Source of the DNA: Bacilli bacterium
GTDB taxonomy: Bacteria > Bacillota_I > Bacilli_A > ML615J-28 > CAG-313
Direction of reading: 5' to 3'
Assembly: GCA_051872775.1 (NCBI GenBank)
Contig: JBJEEE010000088.1
Coordinates: 2,762-66,761, forward strand
DNA length: 64,000 nt
Shown: one piece after another, positions 24,601-44,472 of the stretch
How the letters are laid out: each line of letters opens with the position of its first letter
Numbering within the stretch: position 1 is the stretch's first letter
The notes under the pieces: generated by a model
Seen by the model: only the letters and a program-made list of their open reading frames with translations
Databases searched by the model: none
Told to the model about the DNA's origin: nothing
Program-made: the position numbers and the translations under genes

Positions 24601-26531
24601 TTAGTCTTATCATCACCTAATAGATTTAGTGTTAATACACTTTGAACAATTTCTTTCATTGCATCGATTGCTTCTTTGCTTTCGATATCCATTTGTTTTA
24701 AATCAAGAGATAAAACATTAATCTTATCGACTGCTAGTTTTGCAACTTCAATAATTGCATTGATGTCTTCTTTCCATTGTTCAATTGTTAAGTCTTTTAG
24801 ATTGATGATGTTTGCAAATTCAGTAAATCCGTTTTGTTCATTTGCTAAGTAGCTATCTACAGCAGATTGAGCAACAGGAATAAGAATATTGTTAAATACG
24901 GTCATTTCTGTTAAACGTTCTAATAGTTTAACTGTTACATCTGTTTTGTTAACAATTAATGATTCAACCAAGTCATTAACATTAGCATCTGTAATTTGTG
25001 CTAGATCAGTATATCCATATTCTTTAAAAATTGTGTAAACATCAACAAGACCATTTAGTTCTTCTTTCCAAGAAATATCACTTAAGTTTAAATTCTTAGG
25101 ATCATAATTTCCTGTAAGATTTTGTACTGCTTCAAGTTTAACACCTGTTTTAACTAAGATTGGAAGAAGAGTGTTAATGAATTCACCCTCGCAAAGAGCA
25201 TTGATAACTTGGTTTAAAACTTGTTCATTCATTGTTAAAACGTTGAAATCTTCAAGTGGGAATAAATCAAGTTTATATACTTCTTTAACTGTATCAAGGA
25301 TAGTTTCAACTTCTTTGTCCCAATCAAGGTCTCTTAATGCTAGGAATGCAGTTGTTTGCATTGCCTTATCAAGAGCAGCTTTTAAGAACTCAATTTCACT
25401 TGCATATTCAATCGCTACTGGCATTGCTTCTGGAAGCAACTTAGAATCTTTCAAAACGTCTAATGCTGCTGCAAGTTGTTCATCAGTCCATGTACCTACT
25501 TCGATATTTCCTTCAAGTGCATTAACTGCTTCAAGATAAACGATTAATTCTTGACGTAGTTTAATGTTTTGAGTTGAAGTATTGATACTAGCCATTGAAT
25601 CAAATAATAGCGTACTTAATGATTGTCCAAAGAAATATGAAGAGCTTTCTACAAATTTCCCAACAGCACTGTCTTTGTATTCATCAACAAAGTCAAATGC
25701 CATATCTACTGGACCATTTTGTTCTGCTACATTTTGTTGTGTTTGGTTACCTGTAACAAGATCAGAGATTAATTCTCTTGTTTCAGGAGTTGCAGTTTTC
25801 ATAATTGAATAAATGCCTGAAATAGGTGCAAATAGTAAGATAATTAAGAAAACACCTTTTAGAACACCTGCAACGGCACCCCATACGCGTTTCTTACTCT
25901 TCTTAGGCTCAGGTAGTTCTTCTTCAGATACAGTTACTACTGCATCATCAGCACCTTCCACACCTTTTAAGACAAGTATTGCATCGTCTGCTTCTTCGTT
26001 ATTAGCATTTTCTTCTGCTGATTCTTCCGAAGCATTTCCATCTGCAGCTTGTTTTTTAGCTTTGTGTTTCTTAACACCATGAATAATTAGTATCACAATG
26101 TGACTAATCAATCTGATGATAGGAGTAATAATTACTACTACAAGCGTGCTAACAACCAATAAAACGATTGTTGCGATGCAAGAGCAAAGATTATATACAA
26201 AGCTATATGTCTCTTTTCCTTCTACTAGTAATGCACTTAGGTTTAGTCCCTCTATTGATTTTAAGTAATCAAGAATAGTCTCCCAAACCGTTGCATCCTT
26301 TTGTGGCAAATTCAAAGTACTTCTAATTGTATCAACTAAACCACCACTGTAATTTAGTAATACACCAGAATTACCAAAAACAAGCCAAGCCAATACTAGT
26401 AAAATGATGAAGACAGCGATGCACGATAGTTCTCTTTTTAGACCTCCTAAAAAGCCCCAAAGTGCGAATAAGATTACTATTCCGAGCAATCCCAACCCGA
26501 GAATTAGTAATATCAGATTAAAATCCATCAT
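9639..26531 (-). CDS. Giant (5,630 aa) membrane-anchored acidic repeat protein. An N-terminal CvpA-like polytopic module is followed by a low-complexity acidic linker and a very long predicted alpha-helical region with tandem ~185-aa and ~366-aa repeats.
   Basis: A single uninterrupted ORF of 16,893 nt. The RBS AGAGGTG lies 5 nt before ATGATG. The N-terminus has 3-4 TM helices (LFALWGFLGGLKRELSCIAVFIILLVLAW ... KKSKKRVWGAVAGVLKGVFLIILLFAPISGIY). The body is rich in D, E, L, V, I and N and carries recurring motifs (KxYTxAQYVTDENV and ExWxxxxxNxLxxALKIEERVTVDSFAGL). Its own promoter and terminator flank the gene. Confidence 0.85.
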   Translation of the reverse strand: MMDFNLILLILGLGLLGIVILFALWGFLGGLKRELSCIAVFIILLVLAWLVFGNSGVLLNYSGGLVDTIRSTLNLPQKDATVWETILDYLKSIEGLNLSALLVEGKETYSFVYNLCSCIATIVLLVVSTLVVVIITPIIRLISHIVILIIHGVKKHKAKKQAADGNASEESAEENANNEEADDAILVLKGVEGADDAVVTVSEEELPEPKKSKKRVWGAVAGVLKGVFLIILLFAPISGIYSIMKTATPETRELISDLVTGNQTQQNVAEQNGPVDMAFDFVDEYKDSAVGKFVESSSYFFGQSLSTLLFDSMASINTSTQNIKLRQELIVYLEAVNALEGNIEVGTWTDEQLAAALDVLKDSKLLPEAMPVAIEYASEIEFLKAALDKAMQTTAFLALRDLDWDKEVETILDTVKEVYKLDLFPLEDFNVLTMNEQVLNQVINALCEGEFINTLLPILVKTGVKLEAVQNLTGNYDPKNLNLSDISWKEELNGLVDVYTIFKEYGYTDLAQITDANVNDLVESLIVNKTDVTVKLLERLTEMTVFNNILIPVAQSAVDSYLANEQNGFTEFANIINLKDLTIEQWKEDINAIIEVAKLAVDKINVLSLDLKQMDIESKEAIDAMKEIVQSVLTLNLLGDDKTKNDLVLAAIIKFNLLDVDDLYVTSADGTSKVSIFENVNWTTDGDNIGEIDTIKNILEIYKQFVLLDEVNMKDLNIDFIALLDNEDGVDILVSILEELVDSDLTLSLIDPAVNKYLLPITNEFDDDNLVKDIFNNISNKEMAEEIIKIVKAIKDAQTLGLFDVAKNGLGSLKYSETDALINIINTIFDSKILDGVEGRVIRIIFKATKILDIEKGLLDNINFDGEQEMLVNFIHAIENVLQDPNFVLFDEAGNVTLDLEYITQPEIFSQLMSGVEIVLGTLEKDENGNFVETSGSKLVEALLPNIMSTYVIKSIPEEFKGLVEIVDLENLDSALLASDVRRLTYIARQLVEMDLQTIFVNGSIVYTDKLENVYNILDALLGMEMLKPCGNEVFAWIINYVSGKFLAQYNIEEVTAEDFAGVDWAVEAETAKALITQIIEFLEVNNLESTAELIDFINEKGYLTTSFVTTENANRVLEILNTALELNTIEAIAPIAFQVVVNQLVSNNVISKDFWEGSLTGEELVEDLYSVTEIAEILVNDIDFVEMWRASFQGEAIVLPEDTAVNEIIDKLFSLNLVKGYENELVQFALEKYLPKNDVISVESFNVQSITNWDNEVATIKGVVSIVLNILAVNEFENVAQITDFINNVKNSSNVVEGLKAYITDNNISLVAGLLDEVVNSQLVANILPDVVSYGLEQLAKQVIDLQFINDLTAEELQADVHKLVEIINVLVEERIACFIVNKTVEVESKNVYGLLETAKAVVGKINELNLVTKHENELMSTLINKAFALAKLTDFTLSASDLENVDWNDEFTSIQQILTIVQNFAADNHLVVYRDVTKYLDEVKADVKVIVTEVNGRHIVSAVKELANMGTVKALLPQVLSFGIDKAYEAGYDIRFVDEAKLTNDEIANDIVTFANIVIDLIDLGAVKLYKNETIGNLNEAVVKDIANQLANVNILAKFAGEWTAFVVNFALDKLNIKDFNVRYNAENFAGLSDEQWTNDTEKLGNALFAVVSALDELFPAGYSIESIKQFISNKEYSNYDIFTNTLIDCVVDALSNVLAINLIDPIVNDFVSFGVDKLANVALFKDIDVQFIKEIATREVLSHDVINLGEIAKTMIEFGLFEYLETKTLQKVELDKLNPIFDQIDQMELFQVNRETWMEFIANTVMTAAKLDVRYTAEDFATITDEIATESLQTVKSVVSQLAELLAYWQLESLEEITSFVSGKGYTSATYITDEAVISITEIVDTITTIVPLQSMLPKLAQYGLSKVPEKYDLSFVEPYLEDGTLSGSVLAEDIRTIMAIVVDGVNFGALDLVYKVYEEQPFEVKFEYISSIIEKIDTLHVLEIDYNSWISFASNIGFELAKSVVRVQPEDFAYMTNDAWHEDFATLASIVNSIGEIAKNNNLTFYDDINLFIKEKGYTSAQYVTDENVSDILSVVDTIIGINFIDPYLVKGLSSLIDYVIIGNEALPDMKFVSTAIDNHEYISSDIKDDLRTVIEMVRNVLDFGAIEIYFTQQLSVINVEPIQNIIANINELHLFHLSEAKWFENIFTQVFKALKLDENKYHVSANEYITMNRAEWDQDFESLSHIVGLIGELLDESSITSSSELTEFINNKYYTLAQYVTDENVLVIAEIIETLGGIKALSPALDDLVRYALSEKVNIANVDLSFLVDALENRELTGEMLSSDIQSLASIIKDAVEIGVIDYVYFNKLPELNYDLIKNILVTATGLNTIVVAIDNWAALGFNQLFKALKIENTVSAEDFAMMNATTWSNDVNTIIEIVDRLEALLKANDLNTIEDVQSFFKDKLYTLAQYANNENALALVEIVDLVGTIRVIEPALPVLAKFGVSKVSTDKFDVSFLESHFESDLTGEKLSADIRTVAAMLKEIVEFGTIDYFFYQELDQIQIVKLQNVLTMLNELNIYAVDKESWLVLTVNQLLAALNVEERVTVDSFAGLNPDNEIMHLVDALGEVDALLRALNIVSTNDLKQFIQDKGYINGQYVTDETLDIVLNAVEDIQQMQTLKVLLPVIARWGVDKIASSDLDFLKEAMHNDTFTAEELVEDVKTVISIARNCVALGVFDAIFDIDMETIDGGLVATIVSQIENIHIFNKLHSDWVALGLNKALSALEINVTPEELDVLTNAQWLEDNQLLQNALVSVAELMERLGLTYKSAIVNYVSAPDYKELLGYKELLSEIISNLLNTNTTDVIFDKVLHYVVVKAENAGVDISFLEGNYHAVDLANDVLPVLNAAENLVDFGIEEIIKEKQLSTIELQYVGQALLELENTVLYSNFNANWLVVLSNKLLEALKIEERVTVDSFAGLDLSNEMTVVNNTLLEVQTLLDTLGLESSTQVKEFVESKNYTKQEFVTNENVELALNVVDTLISAQTLKVLLPIISRWGVDKITGSDLDFLKEAMHNDTFTSSELVEDVQSVVEIARKALQLGVRDFLFDIAVLSYDRVALSEIVAKLAEVNVYSKLRGNWLALGLNKVLASLEISVEASEFNAITAEQWAEDNQKLQNALVALCDLLEEQGLTYLTAVQVYMSQGTYKDNLEEIFNNNLETLKVVLSNLIGTHTVNVVFPKVLHYAVVKAADAGYDISFLEGSYASSDLANDVSPILNIVQNLLAFGVKEYIDTKDISSIEVEYIANAVAEIENALVFTKYRNSWVNILIDKAVTALKIDQEIDYSVISLTDEQWKSDNVTLQSLVLKLGEILDNNNLNKYSEVVSFFKDEKKHTLEETYTDTNVALIADAIKLVLSFNSVECLFPQVVCLAINKAYDFNLDLLFLASSLQMEVVKNDVDVLVQMFKPLCKFGLFEIINTKQLQFLNVEYLNPVIDLIPSLGIYNLNRNAWAASLANCLAHALKSDIRVSESDFVGVDWDAENDLFQELVSAVDKFLVETDLVSIDNIKDLQARGFKLQEQYATSENANNLVDVVAAISNLATFNVLSKDLVDFGLAKLETSGLSLTYLTDKVDNNEVTEDVKSIVVALRKLIEFGVVEQMFTKAEINYNAKATLYEAIEKVLNLNVLVNNGNNVVLSIFDKLGIDASRAVGTVVFREEYDSIVTILDSVFTIFENYKITTYEEIAKVVSIIAGKGLRIDKSFNENIQALADIIDVLYKDDLFAFVIMPISEKYLSSEKLAGLADLHNIYSNVSELNSDLHNVYVVLSNIQSLNIYDCLIGNADYPFDRTFNFTNIINNLFTLNYFNNPGRMDAFVNGLDNLITSVDLSSVNGNNISLADDADDIVEMVKNISAVLTNPDFPIKNKEDIDNKISVSINFFLRQENLDLELAAIKNYMNTTLYGETGAAILIVILPLLKNVLNDYWTALDLDNYSAEMINHDTPYIMAIIETLVNLDYNAIGDGSLAYSALESDVDAIIDNLVELQLLDGHYNDLVALLLRDFVYGKTFGNVTIEQDAFNIENVDFEHDLIVAKDIFRAFIELMASEGNNTMREVSDYFVSFDSKAFLNNDAAMNKVAEIVEYVAQLTIIEQNALALYNTFAVPSLGDNVKYVDYRSATNEELYADLVKVPEVIRLAVAMNVFGIIDGETIDYVGADGLMADHVEQLLNILASTNYIELHFAKIINRLSNKFEGLRTYGASYETIDVAGDANKVAQAYRVLVPYLSSSEFPVKTINDFGKLLTKQTIIDAQGYGEYLVDAYEILAQTSVAPYVVPTVVNKAKEFVGGRLQSIVNVLTTDGLTLEQLTNDVLLSITLVKDVYESRIYRFVLDKDLTFPTSEVAVEIVDTALSMNIISTKFNELVKAVFVEFNIDTANIDFAAFDCETEKQIIKAVVSETFDILAECELTTLSAVKAEIKDLINTVKVSRRSFARKVVDLLSNVQKERFVRIIETIAESQLFVETFIPVYNKVLSKYGSLFGTYEEYLSLEGYTKAALDSDVEIFAQAVRALFESKLHQVYTAKAQLSDSQMAAAQTSVRLFGQLQILELKKQAAVDILEKLVKVDLSDIDVNTIDVEFDFNLLAEALPMLCTVIRDSNLRFSVHLFGNTEFMNAAIDVLELFFESTTSKEFMPVIVRKATNKLSSMINVTFSEKTDEQVYSLCDDIIVALRALSEMGAFSNNGVDFTNSELTDKVFAVIYNNVNLRSYKKYFDKFVRNIAEYGVISLNYEAASTSNEISVAKGLIKQLITFVKTYVTYIKNKDLSIVSDPVFQADVTSLVNKALESDLLAQVFMPVIVGTTKVATENYGKFAMFTGMTNSQFVNVALPDLFQIVSYVETLGLFRRTINYKDVDTIVALADLVVTSPVTKDLLNDLIPAAFKFAMKINLDRDELAAANVDYVNEVSIITTFLRGIESELQNISISDPSTMMTQEFLLAVANNGAVLENSKLAQLYMKRVMRKVINKVSSTTDALDFMLTALNDPSYTNEQAMDDYLLILKVMKEAAYINFFGADLDFAALDGHIDVLLDNLFALHAVDGNEEAVMSMILSKLSFVDTSSIDLSVVSDWDQEFASFTEMCAALATLCADPNFDIENMTTSMFENSAIQTKFVAFVDKASESYVGSEMFKELFKTKVDNNLPADAQGIIDIDTLPRDKWAEEFEELFEIYVVISQGISNMTFNDVLSAYDVMFGLNGKDGIEAVKADYKYWLTKLIDQSNFTVPNSNVRIKTELIPDDNALAYNEVVAVREVIVNMASYLDPATDKICDFDYVVIETSKDYVKLADTLIAVSKALSMREVILGVVSDAVNNNSDESGKSTFVLAEMISDAFKRQYATSRVDYTGYDEMFWTEEELTKMAIIVACANALELDSEGATDIYTMDLGTTYPDITVYENVVSTGSGLFPSQVAGANQVGLRQMLQLFVVSNVFDISCFGGEDGVIATKLESGTNPILSSKFNRPLGTLSSEDEFNETIALTNALADLRDLGLIDGTDIASSLYSFETAKTEKLLRHMNESVILRPMLAVIVYEATKETMVNHGGLNEVQAATYIETYLPDLANQYNASNPLASKEDYNTIISSYINTIKGFKGEI
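15400..21000 (-). repeat. In-frame tandem coding repeats inside the giant gene (period ~550-590 nt, arranged as ~1098-nt double units)
   Basis: The motif G/K-Y-T-x-A-Q-Y-V-T-D-E-N recurs at about 20900, 20320, 19730, 19150, 18590 and 17500, and in degenerate form further on. Near-identical nucleotide blocks lie at 17341-17455 vs 18439-18553 and at 17650-17675 vs 18748-18773, an offset of 1098 nt. The boundaries are approximate. Confidence 0.6.
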
Positions 26532-34655: not shown

Positions 34656-37600
34656 TTATTCTTGATAGCCCCAAACTACAGTGATATCAGTTGAATTCCA
34701 ACCATCAACCCAACCATCTGGTTTAGATGCGGCGGCACATTTAATTGTTTTTAATTCCGTACAACCAACAAAGATAGCTCTTGCAATTGTAGTTACACTT
34801 GATGGAATTACGATATCAACTAAATTTGTACATCCGTTAAAAGCATTTAGATTAATAGTTGTAATTGTATTAGGCATATTAATCTTAGTAACTGTTGTAG
34901 CATTAACAAAGGCATTAGAAGCAATACTTACTACAGTGTATTCGACTTCATTAACGTTAACAGTTTGAGGTATAGTTACTTCGTTTGCGCTACCATTATA
35001 GTTAACAACTTCTGCTTGGTTTGTATCAGCAGCTCCATCTACACCTTTAATTGTTTCAACAGTGATATACATATCATCAATGACTACGAATTCACCACTT
35101 ACTTTACGACTACCTACTAATTGATCAAAGTTTTGTGCCCATGTAGCTGGTAATGTATATGATACTGTTCCATCTGAACCAGCAGTAGCAGTAATTGCGT
35201 TAGTTAATAATACCGCTAATGATAAGTTAGCAAAAGCGTTAGAACCAACATTTACAACTGTTTCAGGAATATAAACAAAGTTAAGACGTGCACATCCTTC
35301 AAAGGCTTTTGAACCAATGGTTTCTACTAATTCAGGAATAATTAATTTAGTAAATGAAGATGACTGACAATTGTAGAATGCGGAAGCACCAATTACTTCA
35401 AGAGTTGAAGGAAGAATAAAATTAGCAATACTTCTACATCCTTCAAAGGCACTTTCACCAATCTCAACTAAGTTAGCTGGGAAGTTTACATCAACTAAGG
35501 AAGTACATGATTTAAAGATACCTTTTGGAAGAACTGTAATTAAACTTGGGATAGTTACTGCTGTAACACTTGCACATCCTTCAAAAGCACTTTCCCCAAT
35601 GTATGTGATTTTTTCACTTAATGGAAGTTCCGTAACACAAGCACAACCATTGAAGGCACTCTCTTCAATTACTTCTATATTATCTACATTATTTACAGAT
35701 ACTAACGAACTGCATTTTTCAAACATTCTAGTTGGAATTGTCTTTGTTGATGAAGGAAGAGTAACTGTTTGAAGACGAGAGCAATTATAGAATAATCCTT
35801 CAGGAAGTTCTGTAATACTATTAGAAATTACAACTTCTTTTAGATTATTTGCACCACTAAAGGCATATGGATTAATAGTTTCGACAGAACTTGCAATTGT
35901 GTAACTTTCTTTTGAATCACCGGCAACATATAGCATTAATACCTTACCATCTTTAGATAAAAGAGCACCGTTTTCCAATTTGTATTTTGGATGATCATCA
36001 GAAATTGATAATGTTTGAAGTGATGACCAATTACGGAATGCACCTACGCCGATAGTTTCTACTGCTTGAGGAATACTAATACTTTTTACTTTGTTACAAT
36101 CTGCAAATGCATAGTCACCAATATATTTGATTGATGATGGAAGAGACAACTCTTGAATACCTGTGCAACCTGAGAATGCTCGTTTACCAATAGATTCTAA
36201 TTTATTTGATTCAGTATCAAATACAACAGTAGTTAATGATTGACAATTGATAAAGGCATTATCACCAATTGATTCTAATTCAGCGTTGAAAGTAATACTT
36301 GTTAAATATACAACATTGATAAAGGCAGCATCATGAATCTTAGTTCCTTTTAACACTGTTACTTCAAGCGTCTCTGGATTTTCTCCACCTAAAATACAAT
36401 CAAATGATGGATTATCAGCTTCTTCTTTATTTCCTACATAAGGAATAGTAAGTGATTGTAAATTAGTACAACTTACAATTGCTTGTTCTGAAATTTCAAG
36501 AACAGTTGCAGGAATAACTAAATTAGTTAATGAACGACAATCCGTAAATGCACCAGCATGAATATATTTAACTTCAGCAGGAATTACAAAACTTGATACA
36601 GTACTTGCGGATAAATATTGAACAAGTTCTGACATATCCTTCGTATATAATACTAAAGATGAGTATTTTTTTGAACCTTCAGTGATTTCGTTTACTACAA
36701 ATTTATAACTTGGATTATCTTCACTTATGATTACTTTCTTTAAAGCACGGCAATTATCAAATACTTTATCACCAATCGAAGTAACATTGGAGAAATCTGC
36801 TGATGTTAATGCTGTACATCCCGCAAAAGTACGATCTTCAATTGTAGTTACACCTGTTGGAATAACAACTGAAGTAAGTTTAGCACAATTCATAAATGCA
36901 GCTTCGCCAAGCGATTCAAGATTTGTAGGTAATACAAAACCAGCAAGTTTTGAACATCCCTTGAAAGCATATGATCCTATTCTTTTAACATTGTTAGAGA
37001 TGTTAACAGTAATTATTGAAGAACAATCAACAAAAGCAAAATTAGGAATATCATAATCGCCTGCAATTGTTATTTGCGTTAAGCTTCTTGGTACATTGTT
37101 ACTATTATTGCTTGAATTTGTAGAACCAAAGATATATCCAAATAAAGTAGTTTTATTAAATACATATTCACCTTGTTGGTCTTTTACTAGTTCGCCTGTT
37201 CCTTTATCAACTGTAAAACCAGTACCGATAAATGGTAAACTTATACTCTTAAGTCCACTGCATCCTTCAAAGGCACCAGCACCGATACTCTTTACAGTAG
37301 TTGGAACAACTATATTGGCAAGGCTTGTGCATCTTGCAAAAGCTGAGCCTTCAATAATTTCAACAGATGGTGATAATAATTGAGAAACTATGCTATCTGT
37401 TAATGAACTACATCCTGCAAAAGCATTTTGTGAAATCTTAGTTAAATTAGTAGGAATATTATTAATCGTAGCAAGTTTTGCACAACCTGAGAAAGCATCA
37501 TTTCCAATATTATTTATTGATGAAGGAAGTGTAATTGTAGTTACAAACTCTAAATCTTTAAAAGCTTTTTCAACTATCTTTTCTCCACCAGTTATTTCTA

Positions 37601-38528
37601 TTCTTGTTAGTGTTTCAGGAATAGTTCCAAATACACTCATAAACACTGTATTACTATTCATTGAAGTACCTACAAACGGAACGGAAATTGATTTTAAACT
37701 AGTACATCCAATAAAAGCATTTAAGCCAATTTCTTTTACAGTATTTGGAATTACAAGGTTTTCTATACTATCTGCAGCAAAGAAAGCACTACTATGAATT
37801 TTGCTAACACTTGAATCTACAGTGAAATCTGAAATATAAGTTTTTAATACAACGATGATTTCTTTTGTTCCATCTTCATTATTTAAGTAAAGAACACCAT
37901 TGTCGCAACTAAATAATGTCGAATTAGTTGCTATTTCTAATTCATCTAATTGATCACAACCAGTAAATACACCTTCACCAAATGATTGGATACTTGATGG
38001 GAAATAAAGTGTGCTTATAGCTGTATCCGCAAAAGCTTTATTGCCGATTGTTTCAATACCTTCTTTTAAATCGATTTCTTCAAGTGAAGAACAACCCGAA
38101 AAAGCATTATCTTCAATGGTCTTTACTGATGAAGGAATCACTACTTTTTCTAATCTCATGCAATCTTCAAAAGCACCATAACTTATTTTTTCTAATGTAT
38201 TAGGAAGTTTAACTTCCTTTAGATTAACACAAGATTTAAATGAATAACGGGCAATATTTTTAATTTTACTACCACTCTCAAATGATACTTTAGTAATAGT
38301 TGAATTGTTTTCAAAGGCACCATTACCAATTAAGGTTATTTCTTTTGGTATTACAACTTCTTTATCAGTACCATTATAAACTAATAAAGTTTTTCCCGTT
38401 GCATCTGTTTGAAATGTAGGTATAACTGTTTTTTTATTAACAACTGTAACTAACAAAATTACTGCTACCGCAATTATTAATATGATAACTCCCCATGCAA
38501 TCAAACTTTTTACTGTTTTTTTATTCAT
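34656..38528 (-). CDS. BspA-type leucine-rich-repeat (LRR_5) surface protein with an N-terminal signal anchor
   Basis: The protein is 1,290 aa. An N-terminal TM segment (LIAWGVIILIIAVAVILLV) is followed by dozens of repeats of the form IPxSVxxIGxxAFxGCxSLxxI. There is no LPxTG motif. The RBS is AAGGAG. Confidence 0.8.
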   Translation of the reverse strand: MNKKTVKSLIAWGVIILIIAVAVILLVTVVNKKTVIPTFQTDATGKTLLVYNGTDKEVVIPKEITLIGNGAFENNSTITKVSFESGSKIKNIARYSFKSCVNLKEVKLPNTLEKISYGAFEDCMRLEKVVIPSSVKTIEDNAFSGCSSLEEIDLKEGIETIGNKAFADTAISTLYFPSSIQSFGEGVFTGCDQLDELEIATNSTLFSCDNGVLYLNNEDGTKEIIVVLKTYISDFTVDSSVSKIHSSAFFAADSIENLVIPNTVKEIGLNAFIGCTSLKSISVPFVGTSMNSNTVFMSVFGTIPETLTRIEITGGEKIVEKAFKDLEFVTTITLPSSINNIGNDAFSGCAKLATINNIPTNLTKISQNAFAGCSSLTDSIVSQLLSPSVEIIEGSAFARCTSLANIVVPTTVKSIGAGAFEGCSGLKSISLPFIGTGFTVDKGTGELVKDQQGEYVFNKTTLFGYIFGSTNSSNNSNNVPRSLTQITIAGDYDIPNFAFVDCSSIITVNISNNVKRIGSYAFKGCSKLAGFVLPTNLESLGEAAFMNCAKLTSVVIPTGVTTIEDRTFAGCTALTSADFSNVTSIGDKVFDNCRALKKVIISEDNPSYKFVVNEITEGSKKYSSLVLYTKDMSELVQYLSASTVSSFVIPAEVKYIHAGAFTDCRSLTNLVIPATVLEISEQAIVSCTNLQSLTIPYVGNKEEADNPSFDCILGGENPETLEVTVLKGTKIHDAAFINVVYLTSITFNAELESIGDNAFINCQSLTTVVFDTESNKLESIGKRAFSGCTGIQELSLPSSIKYIGDYAFADCNKVKSISIPQAVETIGVGAFRNWSSLQTLSISDDHPKYKLENGALLSKDGKVLMLYVAGDSKESYTIASSVETINPYAFSGANNLKEVVISNSITELPEGLFYNCSRLQTVTLPSSTKTIPTRMFEKCSSLVSVNNVDNIEVIEESAFNGCACVTELPLSEKITYIGESAFEGCASVTAVTIPSLITVLPKGIFKSCTSLVDVNFPANLVEIGESAFEGCRSIANFILPSTLEVIGASAFYNCQSSSFTKLIIPELVETIGSKAFEGCARLNFVYIPETVVNVGSNAFANLSLAVLLTNAITATAGSDGTVSYTLPATWAQNFDQLVGSRKVSGEFVVIDDMYITVETIKGVDGAADTNQAEVVNYNGSANEVTIPQTVNVNEVEYTVVSIASNAFVNATTVTKINMPNTITTINLNAFNGCTNLVDIVIPSSVTTIARAIFVGCTELKTIKCAAASKPDGWVDGWNSTDITVVWGYQE

Positions 38529-38673: not shown

Positions 38674-38892
38674 TTATTGTTTATTATGCATTATTTGTCT
38701 TATTTGCTTAATCAAATTATAAAATCCAAGTGGGAAAATAATTATACTAATATAGCCAATTACTACAATTAAGTGTTTGAAAAAAGGATACTTATTAACA
38801 TATACAACTAAAAAGTATAAACATACATATAATAAGAAGCCTAATATTGTGAGTAGAATCCATCCGATTAATTTCATTGTATTTTTCATCAT
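38674..38892 (-). CDS. Small two-TM membrane protein, translationally coupled to the upstream gene
   Basis: The protein is 72 aa with two hydrophobic helices. Its start overlaps the stop of the 659-aa gene in an ATGA arrangement. Confidence 0.4.
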   Translation of the reverse strand: MMKNTMKLIGWILLTILGFLLYVCLYFLVVYVNKYPFFKHLIVVIGYISIIIFPLGFYNLIKQIRQIMHNKQ

Positions 38893-40862
38893 TGACCACT
38901 TTCATATCTAACTTCGATAAATTCACTATAGATAATTTCTGACATTCCATCTTTCGTTAGATTAACAACTATATCTGAAGTATGATCATTGTAATATTCA
39001 ACATTGGTATGAACATTATATTCTGTACTCCTTAAGTTTAAGTTCAACACTTGGCCATAATAATTAGTCATCTCTACACCGGTATCATTAGCATTAATGG
39101 TGCTTTCCCTAATATTAATATCAACTATAGCCGTTGAAGCTTTATTGATTGTAAAATCTAACGTTTTCGCATCAATGCCATTTAATGATACATTACATGA
39201 ATTAGAATTAATTTTAAGATTAGTGTCATAAGTTCTTGTATTTACTAAATCATTATAATGTATTATATATTGTTGATATGTTTCATCAAATTTATTTATT
39301 TGATCATCACTATACACTTTATTTATATATTCACAAATGATTTGACCACTTTTTCCAATCAAAGAGATTTGAGGACTTGACATATATGAGATAGTCTGAT
39401 GTGACGACCCCGAAGACTCGATTTCTACCGAATCATTAAATATACTTCTGGTAATCTTAAATGACGCTGTATTTTGGACTTTAAAAACACCTTTATCAAA
39501 CGTCAAATCATAAACTTCATTTAGTGATGTTGAAGTTTGATAATTAAGTGTATTACCCGTAATTCTTTCTAGATATATCGTACCTGAATTATTGGCGAAT
39601 GTATAATCTGCAATTTTTTCATCTACAAGCTTAACGTTACTTGAACCATTTTGATGGACGAACTTATTTATATTATCTTCCGACATAACAAGAATGCCAG
39701 ATTGGTGATTTAATTCTAAACTATTTATCTGATTTCCTTTTGATATAATTGAACTTGAATCGCTATTAATACTTACATCGCCATATAGTTTATTTTCATT
39801 TAAACTAATGGAAGCGTTAATTGTTTTAATTTCCGTATGTCCATTAGATGAAAACTTGTCTAAGACGATTTTTCCATAATTAACATCAATTAATGTATCA
39901 CTTATTTCAAAAGTAGACGGTAGCATTACACGAATCACCGCACGTGGAGATTTTAATAAACCTATAAAATCATATGTTTTATCTTTTTCAATATTGATTG
40001 TTAGTTTATTATCTAAAACGTTATAATCTAGGTTTAAAAACTCGTATTCAAATTCAATTTGTGGTGTAGTTAAACTATCATTAGTCATTAAAATAACGTA
40101 AGCATTATTTCCGTTTATAGTAATATTATTGAATGATTGGTCTACAATATAAACATCTTTATTGCTATTGATATCATTGACGGAACGATAAACTCTACCT
40201 TTAGTAGCATAACTTGTAATACCAAAAATCAAGAAAACACAGAGCATACCCACAAGAACTTTAAATAAAATATTTTTCCTTTTAGATATTTTATTTAAAC
40301 ATCCATTAATGGTGAAATGCAAAAACTTATGGTCTTTTCCTCTTGTCTTTTCTATAGAATTTAAGATTTTAGCTATTAATGAATTAATTACTATCAAGAA
40401 TAAATCGATAATGTATATATATAGACTTAGAACAATCAAAATATAATATAAGACAAAAATAAAACTAATAACTACATCTAAAGTATTTGAAAACTTAAAG
40501 ACACCACCAAGCAAAGTAAACATATTTACGATGATAGTAATAATAAAAGCACTACCAACAACAAATATTAATGTGCTTGCAAGGATTGCGAAAGAAAAAA
40601 TAATAATATTAAAAATATTTTTTAATTTAGATATCTGCTTACGCTTAGCTAGATAATCTATACCATGCATTTCATATATACCCTTAGCTATTTCCTTAGG
40701 AGATTTCATCTCGGAAATTACTTTTTCTTCATCAGCGCCGTAGTCAACTTCAACATTAACTTTATCACGATAATGTTTGAGAATTTCATTAACTTGCTTA
40801 GCTGGTAAGAAACGGAGTTCTTCTGAAAGTTCATATAGAAACTCTTTTAAAGTTGACAACAC
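38889..40862 (-). CDS. DUF1700 (HAAS)-TM-DUF4097 (putative adhesin/Toastrack beta-helix) envelope protein
   Basis: The N-terminus LKEFLYELSEELRFLPAKQVNEILKHYRD...GADEEKVISEMKSPKEIAKGIYE matches the DUF1700 pattern (LP..ER...Y.EHF...G.SEEEI...LGSPKEIA). It is followed by 3-4 TM helices and then about 430 aa of N/S/T-rich beta repeats typical of DUF4097. The start is ambiguous: GTG/TTG at 40859-40868, preceded by AAAGGAAG. Confidence 0.6.
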   Translation of the reverse strand: MLSTLKEFLYELSEELRFLPAKQVNEILKHYRDKVNVEVDYGADEEKVISEMKSPKEIAKGIYEMHGIDYLAKRKQISKLKNIFNIIIFSFAILASTLIFVVGSAFIITIIVNMFTLLGGVFKFSNTLDVVISFIFVLYYILIVLSLYIYIIDLFLIVINSLIAKILNSIEKTRGKDHKFLHFTINGCLNKISKRKNILFKVLVGMLCVFLIFGITSYATKGRVYRSVNDINSNKDVYIVDQSFNNITINGNNAYVILMTNDSLTTPQIEFEYEFLNLDYNVLDNKLTINIEKDKTYDFIGLLKSPRAVIRVMLPSTFEISDTLIDVNYGKIVLDKFSSNGHTEIKTINASISLNENKLYGDVSINSDSSSIISKGNQINSLELNHQSGILVMSEDNINKFVHQNGSSNVKLVDEKIADYTFANNSGTIYLERITGNTLNYQTSTSLNEVYDLTFDKGVFKVQNTASFKITRSIFNDSVEIESSGSSHQTISYMSSPQISLIGKSGQIICEYINKVYSDDQINKFDETYQQYIIHYNDLVNTRTYDTNLKINSNSCNVSLNGIDAKTLDFTINKASTAIVDINIRESTINANDTGVEMTNYYGQVLNLNLRSTEYNVHTNVEYYNDHTSDIVVNLTKDGMSEIIYSEFIEVRYESGQ

Positions 40863-40972
40863 AATCACTTCCTTTATTTCTTATTATACCATATTTTAAT
40901 AAATATATAAAATGTAATACATTAAAAAAATAAACAATTGCTATATGCATCCACTTGTTTATTATATATCAA

Positions 40973-41466
40973 TTATATTACAATAATTTTTAAAAGATAA
41001 AGCGCATATCTTGTGATATACGCTTTTCTATTATGGGCGACCTGGTCGAGATCCTCCAGGTCCGGTATTTGTAGAAGTACCAACTGGCCGATTAAAGTTT
41101 CGTCTACTATCATTGTTATCTGATCTTCGATATCAAGGGTAAACTCTTTATGTGTTGTTTTAGCTATCATTTAAATGCGTGTGATACTTCCTTAATACTT
41201 TCTGATAATGAGAGCTCATCTTTTTGACACGTTAGATTGTCTTCTTCCATCTTTGATAAAAAACAATACACTCCGTAAGTTGTGATAAACGCAATACTTG
41301 CTTTTCGATTATTTCAGCCCATTCATTTTGTCCAGATTCCATCTCTATTACTTCACAGGTAGACTTGATAACTGATAGTGGAGTTTTAATTTCATGACTT
41401 GCGTCTGTAATAAAATATTTTTGTTTTTGATAAACTTAATTCATCTTCCACAAGTAATATTCGCAT
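40973..41466 (-). pseudogene. Degraded two-component system: a response-regulator N-terminus fused and frameshifted into histidine-kinase HisKA/HATPase fragments
   Basis: On the minus strand, GAGGTGATACA-ATG opens MRILLVEDELSLSKTKIFYYRRKS*, a receiver-domain start cut short after 24 aa. The overlapping frame reads HEIKTPLSVIKSTCEVIEMESGQNEWAEIIEKQVLRLSQLTECIVFYQRWKKTI*, which contains an H-box (HEIKTPLSV). Multiple stops and frame changes follow, and the 65-aa ORF 40973..41170 looks like an HATPase remnant. Confidence 0.6.
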
Positions 41467-41597
41467 TGTATCACCTCAATTGTTATTATATATTTTAAAC
41501 TTAATTAAAATTAAAAAATATATAATTTAGATAAATTATATATTTTTATTATACTTATTTTTATTTAAATTGTAAATTAGAAAGATTTATACTTATC

Positions 41598-42389
41598 TTA
41601 AATTAATTCTTTTTTGTTATATCTAAGCATTATCACGAAAAACAATAAAACAGTAATAACAAGACTGATTATAATCATTATAGGATTAATTGATACATTC
41701 ATGATTACATTTCTTGTATCCGCAAGCGTGAATACAGAAAAATATTTGATAAACTCAACATTATCAGATAGACTAGATAGAGTATTTAAGACATAACTAC
41801 CCAACACCACCGCAAGACTTACTCCTTGCATCTTTCTTAATTTATGAGTTAGTGTTGACAGAAGCATACATAAAAAGAATATTACAATAGATGGAAATAG
41901 CGGAGTTAAACTCAATAATAGATATTGTATAATATCAAACTCACAACTTACTAATAAACCAATCAAATTGAATACACCGATAACTAAAGTCAATCCAACA
42001 ATATAAATCAATCCAACAATACATTTACTAATGACTATTTTATTTCTTGTAATTGGGAGTGTACTTAAATATTCAATCGTTTTATCATTTTCTTCTTTTA
42101 ATAAAATGCTACCACCTAGCAATCCACTATAACAACCAACTATCAACAAAACAAAGACAAATCCTTCAGATTTTAACCAACCATAAGCACTATCTATTGA
42201 TGAAATATCCATATTAAAGGCCTTTAAAATTTCTTCAGGAAATAATTTCATTAGTTCATTAATTTTGTCTGCTTCAGTTCCACTCATAATAGAAGGATAA
42301 ATCAAGAAAACTACTAAAAATAAAATGATAGAAACGGCTGCCCATACACAAAAACCTTTAAAGTTTACTTTTAATTCTCTCTTAATCAT
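41598..42389 (-). CDS. ABC-2 type transporter permease (6 TM)
   Basis: The protein is 263 aa and polytopic. The RBS AGGAGAA is present. It lies immediately downstream of the ATPase gene. Confidence 0.7.
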   Translation of the reverse strand: MIKRELKVNFKGFCVWAAVSIILFLVVFLIYPSIMSGTEADKINELMKLFPEEILKAFNMDISSIDSAYGWLKSEGFVFVLLIVGCYSGLLGGSILLKEENDKTIEYLSTLPITRNKIVISKCIVGLIYIVGLTLVIGVFNLIGLLVSCEFDIIQYLLLSLTPLFPSIVIFFLCMLLSTLTHKLRKMQGVSLAVVLGSYVLNTLSSLSDNVEFIKYFSVFTLADTRNVIMNVSINPIMIIISLVITVLLFFVIMLRYNKKELI

Positions 42390-42398
42390 GGGTTTCTC

Positions 42399-43271
42399 CT
42401 ATTCATAATAATGTAAGAAAATATCTTCTAAGGTGGCTGGTTCAATATATATCTTCTCAATATTATATTTTGTTAATGTTTTAAGTAATTCATTGGCATT
42501 TATGGTGTTTTTGAATGTGACGGTATCAGCGGTTTTAGTGATAACATCTATATGTAATTCATCAATTATTGCTTTTACTTCTTTTGAAGTTATGGTAACA
42601 AACGATAAACTTTTTTCAATGATCTCACTTACTGGTTCAACCTTTAACAAATGACCGTTTTTGATGATTCCTACCCTATCACATATTTTCGATACTTCAC
42701 TTAAGATATGGGAAGAATATAAAATTGTTGTTCCTTTTTGTTTTTCTTCTTCTAATATTTGATAAAATTCTTGTTGAATGATGGGATCTAGTCCACTTGT
42801 TGGTTCATCTAGTATTATTAATTCAGGTTCGTGCATGAAAGCAAGCACAATTCCTAATTTTTTAAGATTACCAAGAGATAAGTCTTCTATTCTTTTGGAC
42901 TCATCTAATTTTAAACGGTGAACTAACTTCTGGCGTCTTTCTTTTAAATTCTTATTAAACATTTTTTCATGGAAGTCAAGCATTTCTTTAACTGTAAAAT
43001 CATCATATAAATTAATTTCACTCGGTAAATAACCGATTAATTTCTTCATTTCAATATCATCTTTTACAAGTTCATTTCCATTAAATAGCACTTTACCTTC
43101 CGTTTTATTGATAATACCTAAAATAGAACGTATCGTTGTTGATTTGCCGGCACCATTAGGACCAATGAAACCGAAAACTTCCCCTTTTGTAAGATTAAGA
43201 TTTAAATCTTGAACACCTAATACTTTTCCATAATACTTTGTAAGGTTAGTAATTTCAAGAATATTTTCCAT
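42399..43271 (-). CDS. ABC transporter ATP-binding protein (ABC-2/BcrA/NatA-like)
   Basis: The Walker A motif GPNGAGKST, the LSLGNLKKLGIVLA signature and the Walker B motif ILDEPTSGLD are present. The RBS is AAGGAGA. Confidence 0.85.
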   Translation of the reverse strand: MENILEITNLTKYYGKVLGVQDLNLNLTKGEVFGFIGPNGAGKSTTIRSILGIINKTEGKVLFNGNELVKDDIEMKKLIGYLPSEINLYDDFTVKEMLDFHEKMFNKNLKERRQKLVHRLKLDESKRIEDLSLGNLKKLGIVLAFMHEPELIILDEPTSGLDPIIQQEFYQILEEEKQKGTTILYSSHILSEVSKICDRVGIIKNGHLLKVEPVSEIIEKSLSFVTITSKEVKAIIDELHIDVITKTADTVTFKNTINANELLKTLTKYNIEKIYIEPATLEDIFLHYYE

Positions 43272-43449: not shown

Positions 43450-43524
43450 TGGTAGGGCTAGATAGATTCGAACTATCGAAATGACGGAGTCAAAGTCCGT
43501 TGCCTTACCGCTTGGCTATAGCCC
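43450..43524 (-). tRNA. tRNA-Gln (anticodon UUG)
   Basis: The minus strand reads GGGCTATAGCCAAGCGGTAAGGCAACGGACTTTGACTCCGTCATTTCGATAGTTCGAATCTATCTAGCCCTACCA. The anticodon stem is ACGGA/TCCGT and the loop is CTTTGAC. A T-loop GTTCGAATC and an encoded CCA are present. Confidence 0.85.
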
Positions 43525-43532
43525 TATAAAAA

Positions 43533-43616
43533 TGGTGGGGAGGGACGGATTCGAACCATCGAACTCGGAGAGAGTGGATTTACAGTCCACCGCGTTTAGC
43601 CACTTCGCTACCTCCC
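43533..43616 (-). tRNA. tRNA-Tyr (anticodon GUA), class II with a long variable arm
   Basis: The minus strand reads GGGGAGGTAGCGAAGTGGCTAAACGCGGTGGACTGTAAATCCACTCTCTCCGAGTTCGATGGTTCGAATCCGTCCCTCCCCACCA. The anticodon loop is CTGTAAA. Confidence 0.85.
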
Positions 43617-43720
43617 CAACTGCCATAATATTATACTATATTTTTATTACTTTGTAAAATAGTTTGCTTATTGAAATAAAAAAAGATTTATTAACTATAA
43701 TTTAGTTTATAAATCTTTAT

Positions 43721-44176
43721 TTATTTTGATATTATAGAACAACTTTTTTGGATTAAGTTTGCTTCTTTATTTATTTTAATAATTGTATTTTTGATAACTT
43801 TTATAAGTTGTAAATTATATATAAGATTTAATAATCCTACCTTAATTATTCTTTTATGTTTTTTTATCTTACTGCTAAGATATTCTAAAAGTTTGTACAT
43901 ACTTTTTTTTAAAAACATTATATATATGCATATACCTACAATTACAAGTAAAATAAAATATATAGGTATATAACCATATGCCAAATTATAGCTAAATATA
44001 TATGCTATCAATATTTGTATTATACAAAATATAATTTCAATAATGATTCTTATGCTTTTTTTGTTAATGAAATGATTAGAAAAGTAAAGAACACAATCAT
44101 ATGTTGATATTATAAAAATACCATAGAATACTAAATATACTAAAACATTTATTTCTTCTCTTAATGTATGAATCAT
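43721..44176 (-). CDS. yabQ: Sporulation membrane protein YabQ homologue
   Basis: The protein is 151 aa and hydrophobic. The motif YGYIPIYFILLVIVGICIYIMFLKKSMYKLLEYL resembles YabQ (FRFYIFLAVLCGYATYQSLLKRIYLKLL). It overlaps the yabP stop in an ATGA arrangement. Confidence 0.5.
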   Translation of the reverse strand: MIHTLREEINVLVYLVFYGIFIISTYDCVLYFSNHFINKKSIRIIIEIIFCIIQILIAYIFSYNLAYGYIPIYFILLVIVGICIYIMFLKKSMYKLLEYLSSKIKKHKRIIKVGLLNLIYNLQLIKVIKNTIIKINKEANLIQKSCSIISK

Positions 44177-44472
44177 TTGAATAGTTTAGTTAAGAATCCT
44201 TGTTTTTTCTCTTTTTTTGTAGTGCTATCTTTATAAATTAATGAATCGATATGACCGACTATCCAAAGGTTTCCTTTTTCAATGTCTAGATGTTTCATTT
44301 CTAATTCATCTCCTTTTACAATTAATATACCTAAATTTGTATCAATTACAAATTCATATTCATTTAAACTTTCAATTTTATTGATACCTTTAATCTCTAG
44401 TTCCTTCCGATTTTTAATTATTATTTCTTGATTAGTTGTACCTATCTTGATTTCTTGATTCATATTTATCAC
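44173..44472 (-). CDS. yabP: Sporulation protein YabP homologue
   Basis: The protein is 99 aa. The motifs LEIKGINKIESLNEYEFVIDTNLGILIVKGDELEMKHLDIEKGNLWIVGHIDSLIY fit the YabP pattern. The RBS is AGGAGTG. Confidence 0.65.
   Translation of the reverse strand: MINMNQEIKIGTTNQEIIIKNRKELEIKGINKIESLNEYEFVIDTNLGILIVKGDELEMKHLDIEKGNLWIVGHIDSLIYKDSTTKKEKKQGFLTKLFK

Follow-up and report, generated by a model that had tools for sequence, protein, structure and literature searches.

RESULTS

Remains of a regulator-kinase pair between an ABC-2 permease gene and a HAAS/DUF4097 gene

The subject of this study is a relic of a two-component system, that is, of a response regulator (RR) and its histidine kinase (HK), carried on the minus strand of a 64-kb window (the whole stretch of DNA analysed; positions 2,762 to 66,761 of contig JBJEEE010000088.1 in Bacilli bacterium assembly GCA_051872775.1; G+C content, 29.9%). 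The relic (41466-41028) lies within the 729-bp spacer that separates the permease gene of an ABC-2 transporter from a gene for a HAAS/DUF4097 "toastrack" membrane protein. Between a promoter-like site and a predicted intrinsic terminator, this spacer holds the start of a regulator gene, pieces of a kinase gene in three reading frames, and a short GC-rich tail (Table 1).

TABLE 1 Features of the relic and its flanks, ordered 5' to 3' along the minus strand
Feature	Position	Strand	Basis or remark
ABC ATPase gene	42399-43271	-	Intact; Pfam PF00005
ABC-2 permease gene, upstream neighbour of the relic	41598-42389	-	Intact; Pfam PF12679
Promoter-like site 5' of the relic, TTTACA-17-TATAAT	41548-41576	-	Predicted; 11/12 consensus positions
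Ribosome-binding site (RBS) of the former response-regulator gene, GAGGTGAT	41470-41477	-	Read from sequence
24-codon open reading frame (ORF), MRILLVEDELSLSKTKIFYYRRKS (starts MRILLVEDELSLSK)	41392-41466	-	ATG 41466-41464, TGA 41394-41392
Deletion junction 1, regulator codon ~14 to pre-H-box kinase	41425-41436	-	Homology boundaries
Kinase segment 1, HisKA dimerisation/phospho-acceptor helix, YQKQKYFITDASHEIKTPLSVIKSTCEVIEMESGQNEWAEIIEKQVLRLSQLTECI	41264-41432	-	Pfam HisKA; alignment
T6 homopolymer, -1 frameshift of the window haplotype	41258-41263	-	Strain comparison
Kinase segment 2, FLSKMEEDNLTCQKDELSLSESIKEVSHAFK, ending at TGA TAG 41169-41164	41170-41262	-	Alignment, second frame
Kinase segment 3, IAKTTHKEFTLDIEDQITMIVDETLIGQLV, linker up to the HATPase_c start	41078-41167	-	Alignment, third frame
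Deletion junction 2, window haplotype only	41077-41078	-	L011 comparison
GC-rich tail, TSTNTGPGGSRPGRP (...NTGPGGSRPGRP), then TAA TAG	41028-41077	-	50 nt; the only cleanly ending frame
Intrinsic terminator, 12-bp stem AAAGCGTATATC/GATATGCGCTTT, then T-tract	40990-41026	-	Predicted; kept in L013
HAAS/DUF4097 promoter, TTTATA-17-TGgTATAAT, extended -10	40883-40911	-	Outside the relic; nearly identical in sister species L013
HAAS (PF22564)/DUF4097 membrane protein gene, 659 aa, downstream neighbour	38889-40868	-	Pfam

As the original prediction had described, an RBS precedes an ATG that opens a receiver-like start and ends after 24 codons. The regulator-derived part of this ORF comprises codons 1 to ~14 only (41466 to ~41425): these 14 N-terminal residues, which include the acidic EDE motif, match the starts of regulators partnered with related kinases (MRLLLAEDEKALSKAL, MRLLLAEDERSLSKAL), and no further regulator-like sequence was found in the window beyond them. 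Regulator homology ends at K14 (41427-41425), and kinase homology starts, in another frame, at the Tyr codon 41432-41430. Judged from these boundaries, junction 1 is an out-of-frame fusion of the regulator start and the kinase, in agreement with the internal deletion proposed earlier. The two homologies overlap by ~8 nt (TATCAAAA, 41432-41425), an overlap of the kind that may be left by deletion between short direct repeats (microhomology).

We assessed the kinase peptide as a frame-stitched segment across the broken frames. This segment scored 48.0 bits against Pfam HisKA (PF00512; E 1.3e-12; gathering score, 26.9) and contains the H-box YQKQKYFITDASHEIKTPL, with the phospho-acceptor His codon CAT at 41396-41394, so that the HisKA segment with a conserved His, predicted in a frame overlapping the 24-codon ORF, is indeed present. 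More specifically, segment 1 aligns to residues ~194-254 of intact kinases of ~415 aa (55-64% identity, E 6e-25), segment 2 to residues ~251-305 (E ~6e-6), and segment 3 to residues ~283-318 (E ~6e-6); together, the three frames cover residues ~195-318 of a single ~415-aa kinase in co-linear order. Segment 2 is ended by a fixed frameshift in the A-run 41172-41170, which is common to all variants. Segment 3 constitutes the first ~31 codons of a 65-aa ORF (40973-41170) that had been read as a HATPase remnant. This ORF exists, and its kinase-derived part is limited to those ~31 codons of linker, which stop just short of the N-box; the rest is out-of-frame read-through of the 3' end of another gene and of the terminator.

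Much of both proteins is missing. The receiver phospho-acceptor Asp and the C-terminal winged-helix domain (PF00072 + PF00486) are absent from the relic, as are kinase residues 1 to ~195 (the N-terminal sensor/transmembrane part), and no continuous ORF spans it. In the window, the kinase sequence ends at ...IGQLV before the N-box, and the N, G1, F, and G2 boxes of HATPase_c are all absent. Since neither the receiver Asp nor a DNA-binding, sensor, or ATP-binding domain is left, the relic cannot signal. The double stop of the tail lies 1 nt before the terminator, which is the sole terminator-like site in the region (0.2 expected), and an Rfam scan of 40600-41900 returned no RNA family, the one match being a chance-level one on the terminator hairpin.

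A related contig carries a different second deletion

A 917-bp ENA contig, L011, is the source of an 80-aa protein (P0002) matched in our kinase protein search. Between the permease end and position 41078, L011 and the window are 95% identical, and they have junction 1 and the A-run frameshift in common. The two sequences are co-linear to ...CAGTTGGTA and then completely divergent: after ...IGQLV, L011 runs on as TIILDNAFKYSAEYGKIELIQKGGGKSKRITVRNTISDFDPSSIDHFF, in which TIILDNAFKYSAEYGK... represents the N-box and beyond. Its kinase is kept through ...LDNAFKYS...SSIDHFF (partial HATPase_c [PF02518] match of 20.5 bits, below the cut-off) and then shifts frame into VEISGGEIAMKSTDDGINAASDDVSITEHIIISGGKIVVNAEGDGIDSNGSILISGGDVIVYGPT..., which matches Cthe_2159 (PF14262) at 31.5 bits versus a cut-off of 25.8. 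Because the kinase is fused to a Cthe_2159 frame in L011, a Cthe_2159-type gene lay downstream of the kinase in this lineage. By this alignment, the DNA missing from L011 reached from the kinase ATPase domain to midway through the Cthe_2159 gene, and the deletion of the window haplotype at 41078|41077 is larger or nested relative to that of L011. The promoter region 5' of the relic also contains, in L011, a 15-nt tandem duplication (ATAATAAAAATAAGC, ~57-71).

The Cthe_2159 piece of L011 offers a candidate origin for the tail in the window. Its closest relative, L017 (72-73% identity), ends in ...GGFGGNPDGWMPGGPGGPGGPGGRPPR* (...PGGPGGPGGPGGRPPR*), and several other members of the Cthe_2159 family likewise end in Gly/Pro-rich tails. 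On balance, we favor the view that the tail at 41077-41028 represents the last ~15 codons of a terminal Cthe_2159-family gene, an origin that would account for its anomalous G+C content. Intact Cthe_2159 proteins gave no significant alignment with the window tail, a segment that is short and of low complexity. A protein search with the L011 Cthe_2159 piece returned only 3 short matches and no longer contig of the L011 type; likewise, an exact DNA pattern scan of metagenome contigs for longer L011-type contigs gave no match.

The same junction recurs in independent assemblies, and decay is ongoing

The exact permease protein of the window was found on 19 contigs. For strain comparison we used nine independent metagenome assemblies that overlap the spacer (L001-L009, from Logan and ENA; some from pig gut). 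Their spacers are 97.9-100% identical to that of the window, with L004 and L005 identical to it, and junction 1 is the same in all nine assemblies that reach it and in L011. An exact pattern spanning the junction had no match among GTDB representatives. With ~4.5-5.5 kb of coding sequence missing at the locus, no frameshift correction could restore intact genes, and none of the nine assemblies has intact frames. The possibility that assembly frameshifts caused the breaks, raised along with the original prediction, is thereby excluded.

Several lesions vary among strains. At 41263-41258, the window, L004, and L005 have a run of six T residues (T6), and L001, L002, L003, L006, L007, and L011 have one of seven (T7); the T7 state keeps FLSKMEEDN in the HisKA frame, so that the kinase remainder is split over two frames in T7 strains versus three in the window. 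The phospho-acceptor His codon has become TAT (Tyr) in L001, L003, and L007, and at RBS position 41476 most assemblies have A, with G found in L002 and L011 (GGGGTG). The frameshift decay proposed previously is thus real insofar as two frameshifts are seen, with the amendments that the T6 lesion is polymorphic rather than fixed and that a second large deletion (41078|41077) has to be added.

The 24-codon ORF differs among strains by 4 non-synonymous (V6A, L10I, K16E, and S24L) and 0 synonymous changes, consistent with the earlier expectation that the small ORFs are not conserved genes under purifying selection. The kinase frame shows 7 non-synonymous versus 6 synonymous changes, whereas the flanking ATPase, permease, and HAAS genes (L001 copies) show 6 versus 27 (Fisher p = 0.03 relative to the kinase frame); when the leucine-rich repeat (LRR) gene described below is added to the flanking set, the counts are 17 versus 47 (p = 0.10). 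The ATPase and permease genes taken by themselves show 0-3 non-synonymous versus 3-12 synonymous changes among strains, indicative of purifying selection. These counts suggest relaxed constraint on the relic, in a low-power test whose direction agrees with the structural evidence.

A sister species retains the promoter and terminator around different debris

Sister species L013 carries the same ABC pair and HAAS gene (permease 84% identical to that of the window; ~83% nucleotide identity overall). It keeps the promoter block (to window ~41517), in which the counterpart of the promoter-like site reads TTGCAT-17-TATAAT, as well as, from window ~41024 on, the terminator and the promoter of the HAAS gene. 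The slot in between (L013 1996-3121) is occupied by 1.1 kb of a decayed DDE transposase in 170-aa and 83-aa pieces (PF01609, PF13751), directly followed by the conserved terminator, and contains no trace of a two-component system. Since both species keep the promoter and the terminator, the slot is, on this comparison, an ancestral transcription unit that lost its interior twice, independently in each lineage; it appears to be a rearrangement hot spot. By the same comparison, the promoter-like site at 41548-41576 probably belonged to the lost operon.

Kinase relatives point to an ancestral operon with VTC, DUF4956, and Cthe_2159 genes

When the stitched kinase was searched against 5.8 billion proteins, only 3 matches came back (best, 39% identity), none of them a close intact orthologue. 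With a profile of the remnant plus the L011 extension, the 80 closest kinase loci were collected from metagenome contigs. The identity is 40-48% over residues 2-168, and one abundant human-gut species accounts for 53 of the 80 loci. Marker genes (regulator, VTC, DUF4956, Cthe_2159, and ABC) were located by phmmer, and the kinases were dereplicated at 80% into 17 clusters.

VTC (PF09359), DUF4956 (PF16316), and/or Cthe_2159 genes adjoin the regulator-kinase pair in 8 of the 17 clusters. Their order is either VTC-DUF4956-Cthe_2159-RR-HK or, as in L163 and L173, RR-HK-VTC-DUF4956-Cthe_2159; in one cluster the three genes are divergently oriented. The best protein match (P0001) comes from NCBI locus L012, where the order is likewise RR-HK-VTC-...-Cthe_2159. 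In L163, Pfam confirmed the three families (VTC, 152 bits; DUF4956, 69.6 bits; Cthe_2159, 180 bits), and the five-gene operon spans ~4.8 kb there and 6.2 kb in L173. Based on these contexts and on the direct kinase-Cthe_2159 fusion in L011, the ancestor was most likely an RR-HK-VTC-DUF4956-Cthe_2159 operon, of which 439 nt (41466-41028) would remain.

The survey also brought out a recurrent cluster in gut Firmicutes (L105-L160, L163, L169-L173, L178, and L012) that combines VTC, DUF4956, and a Cthe_2159 beta-helix protein with an OmpR-type regulator and a HisKA kinase. Full-text literature searches turned up no paper on DUF4956 together with VTC and, for Cthe_2159, none whose title or abstract deals with a two-component linkage. 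In L012 (GCA_009741515.1, VOFJ01000814.1), numerous neighboring genes (Mur ligase, Cthe_2159, IMS, and Glyco_hydro_3) are split into 2-3 short ORFs, a pattern that suggests an error-rich long-read assembly rather than real pseudogenes.

Homologues of the ABC-2 pair have no two-component partner directly downstream

In Bce/Nat modules, an ABC transporter is under the control of a two-component system encoded next to it, and the original prediction had accordingly cast the relic as the former regulator of the neighboring ABC-2 pair. With a permease profile, we obtained 80 ABC-2 loci (52-67% identity) from GTDB species representatives; their hosts are "Bacilli bacterium," Erysipelotrichaceae, Coprobacillaceae, and Candidatus Coprovivens-type metagenome-assembled genomes. 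In none of the 80 related loci is the permease gene immediately followed by a regulator or kinase gene, and an OmpR-type regulator occurs within 10 kb in 4 of them. The permease homologues of L014-L016 (67% and 64% identity), for instance, are followed by unrelated genes such as purB and purA. The proposed link to the transporter thus finds no counterpart downstream of any of these permeases.

In L046 and L071, an OmpR-type regulator and a kinase lie within ~1-2 kb upstream of the homologous ABC pair; these kinases, set apart from the ABC pair by unrelated genes, are only 24-30% identical to the relic. We considered L046, in which regulator, kinase, ABC pair, and Cthe_2159 occur within 8 kb, as a model of the ancestral locus, and rejected it because unrelated genes intervene and the kinase is ~30% identical. 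Conversely, an ABC-2 pair follows the kinase cluster in 1 of the 17 clusters (L173), with a permease 24% identical to that of the window. The window permease itself matches the Pfam families ABC2_membrane_2/4/5 and not FtsX.

Other features of the window

HAAS/DUF1700 proteins usually follow a PadR-type gene; no such small regulator gene was seen directly upstream of the HAAS/DUF4097 gene in the window. At its 3' end, that gene overlaps a 72-aa ORF (38674-38892) that matches no family. Farther along the minus strand, the LRR gene (34656-38528) encodes a 1,290-aa protein made up almost entirely of BspA-type leucine-rich repeats (PF13306, 675 bits); with 11 non-synonymous versus 20 synonymous changes among strains, it shows more non-synonymous change than its neighbors. 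One giant ORF of 5,630 aa, presumably for a surface/adhesin-type protein, occupies 9639-26531 (minus strand). Upstream of the ABC operon lie genes for tRNA-Gln and tRNA-Tyr, followed by YabQ/YabP-like sporulation genes and lysS (43450-43617 and 43721-44472, minus strand); YabP/YabQ, assigned by eye, suggest a spore-forming lineage.

DISCUSSION

A sensor-regulator operon probably erased in steps

The relic at 41466-41028 is, with high probability, a non-functional remnant that arose by progressive in-place pseudogenization of a sensor-regulator operon. The availability of the L011 intermediate, the L013 state, and the conserved promoter and terminator makes the order of events reconstructable. 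In the sequence of events that we propose, a ~1.25-kb deletion joined regulator codon ~14 to the kinase just 5' of the H-box and out of frame, leaving the junction that we observe directly; the ~8-nt microhomology may have mediated this step. A 1-nt slip in the A-run, likewise read directly from the sequences, next broke the kinase frame. Thereafter, the kinase ATPase domain would have been fused by a further deletion to the middle of the Cthe_2159 gene, a state that survives and is directly seen in L011.

In the window haplotype, by comparison, a deletion would have begun just 5' of the kinase N-box, at 41078, and spared no more of the terminal gene than its last ~15 codons. The junction of this deletion is again directly observed, whereas we infer the identity of the tail, the former presence of VTC and DUF4956 genes, the microhomology mechanism, and the relative order of the two alternative second deletions. 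Such an event would leave the stop codons of the terminal gene and the terminator in place, and most likely removed VTC, DUF4956, and nearly all of Cthe_2159. The final changes, visible in the strains themselves, are the loss of a T from the T7 run in some of them, including that of the window, and the replacement of the His by Tyr in others. At most, the promoter and terminator would now yield a short non-coding transcript that includes the 24-codon ORF.

Several points weigh against parts of this reconstruction. No intact orthologous locus of >50% identity was found, so the gene content of the ancestor is reconstructed from L011 and distant relatives, and the marginally best-scoring kinase cluster (L099-L104, L109, and L120; 46-48% identity) has no VTC or Cthe_2159 neighbors. 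The tail assignment relies on 15 low-complexity residues rich in Gly, Pro, and Arg, and L011 ends before its own 3' end, so that the window tail is not directly matchable to it. Furthermore, at the nucleotide level the relic has diverged among strains by ~1.2-1.4%, no more than the genes on either side, which is why the selection test has low power.

Alternative explanations

That the relic was once a dedicated regulator of the adjacent ABC-2 transporter, of the BceRS or NatKR type, and that its loss left the transporter, and perhaps the HAAS gene, unregulated, is suggested by its position directly downstream of, and co-oriented with, the ATPase and permease genes. The loci L046 and L071, with a regulator and kinase near a homologous ABC pair, and L173, in which an ABC ATPase and an ABC-2-like permease come after RR-HK-VTC-DUF4956-Cthe_2159, could be cited in the same sense. 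However, the kinases of the former two and the permease of the latter are only distantly similar to their counterparts in the window, 76 of the 80 permease-homologue loci lack an OmpR-type regulator within a distance of 10 kb, and the permease belongs to the ABC-2 type (PF12679) rather than to FtsX/BceB. In L011, moreover, it is the Cthe_2159 gene that physically follows the kinase, and the relatives of the kinase are associated with VTC-DUF4956-Cthe_2159 clusters, not with ABC transporters. The claim that the neighbors were left unregulated fares no better: the relic and the HAAS gene have their own predicted promoters, and both are kept in the relic-less sister species. We therefore regard a regulator of this transporter as very unlikely.

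It is a clearly improbable, though conceivable, course of events that the fragment arrived already truncated, through a mobile element or illegitimate recombination into a recombination-prone slot. The insertion sequence (IS) remnant in exactly the same slot of the sister species and the failure to find a relative with an intact operon at this position would fit such an arrival. Yet the window and L011, with junction 1 and one frameshift in common, differ in the second deletion, which argues for stepwise loss within the lineage; in addition, the slot is bracketed in both species by the conserved promoter and terminator, and no IS ends or repeats flank the relic. Errors of sequencing or assembly, with a real genome that has an intact regulator and kinase, might be suspected because the window stems from a metagenome-assembled genome and one lesion sits in a homopolymer run, a typical error site. 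Given that the 0.73-kb spacer and its junctions recur in nine assemblies, made from different samples with different assemblers, that kilobases of coding DNA are absent, and that T6 is reproduced exactly in L004 and L005, we attach practically no credence to this explanation.

A further possibility is co-option, in which promoter, RBS, 24-codon ORF, and terminator would form a micropeptide or small-RNA unit, or act as a transcriptional insulator between the ABC-2 operon and the HAAS gene or as a terminator of that operon; the remnant would then be kept for a new role and not merely be awaiting deletion. In its favor, every assembly of the species retains the promoter-like site, the strong RBS, the ATG, and the terminator, and the relic has diverged modestly among strains. 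It is nonetheless highly improbable in view of the exclusively non-synonymous changes in the mini-ORF, the mutated RBS in L002 and L011, the indel polymorphism that alters every downstream ORF, and the lack of an Rfam match; L013, too, keeps the promoter and terminator with the interior replaced by IS debris. Stepwise decay in place hence remains the preferred reading of the relic.

Implications and comparison with known systems

In practical terms, this stretch should be annotated as a pseudogene remnant rather than as three small hypothetical proteins, and annotations should not place the neighboring ABC-2 transporter under two-component control. The locus is of minor interest as a record of an operon erased in steps, with a common first deletion and frameshift, alternative second deletions, and ongoing point decay. 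A minor by-product of the analysis is that this two-component family recurs beside VTC-DUF4956-Cthe_2159 clusters in gut Firmicutes.

Compared with BceRS-BceAB and NatKR-NatAB modules, the window shows the same adjacency and co-orientation of an ABC ATPase and permease with two-component remains. It differs from them in that the ABC genes precede the two-component system and in that the homologous pairs of 80 relatives occur without such a partner downstream, and from BceRS-BceAB also in the type of its permease. The likeness to the VTC-DUF4956-Cthe_2159-linked OmpR/HisKA systems (L105, L163, L173, and L012) is closer: the relic starts with MRILLVEDELSLSK where their regulators have MRLLLAEDEKALSKAL, its H-box helix reads YQKQKYFITDASHEIKTPL versus YEKQKRFITDASHEIKTPL in their kinases, the identity of 40-48% extends over 167 residues when the L011 extension is included, and L011 has the order kinase followed by Cthe_2159. 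Unlike these systems, the relic in the window keeps only ~14 regulator and ~120 kinase codons, distributed over three frames.

The category closest to the relic is that of an ordinary bacterial pseudogene, here derived from an OmpR/HisKA-type two-component operon; the relic belongs to no working family and is unlike a Bce/Nat-type module. Its out-of-frame junctions, slips in A- and T-runs, polymorphic lesions, loss of the His in some strains, and ratio of non-synonymous to synonymous changes near 1 are those of bacterial pseudogenes formed by deletion and homopolymer frameshift; the only unusual point is that an intermediate (L011), the IS debris of a sister species (L013), and the conserved brackets are all available for one locus.

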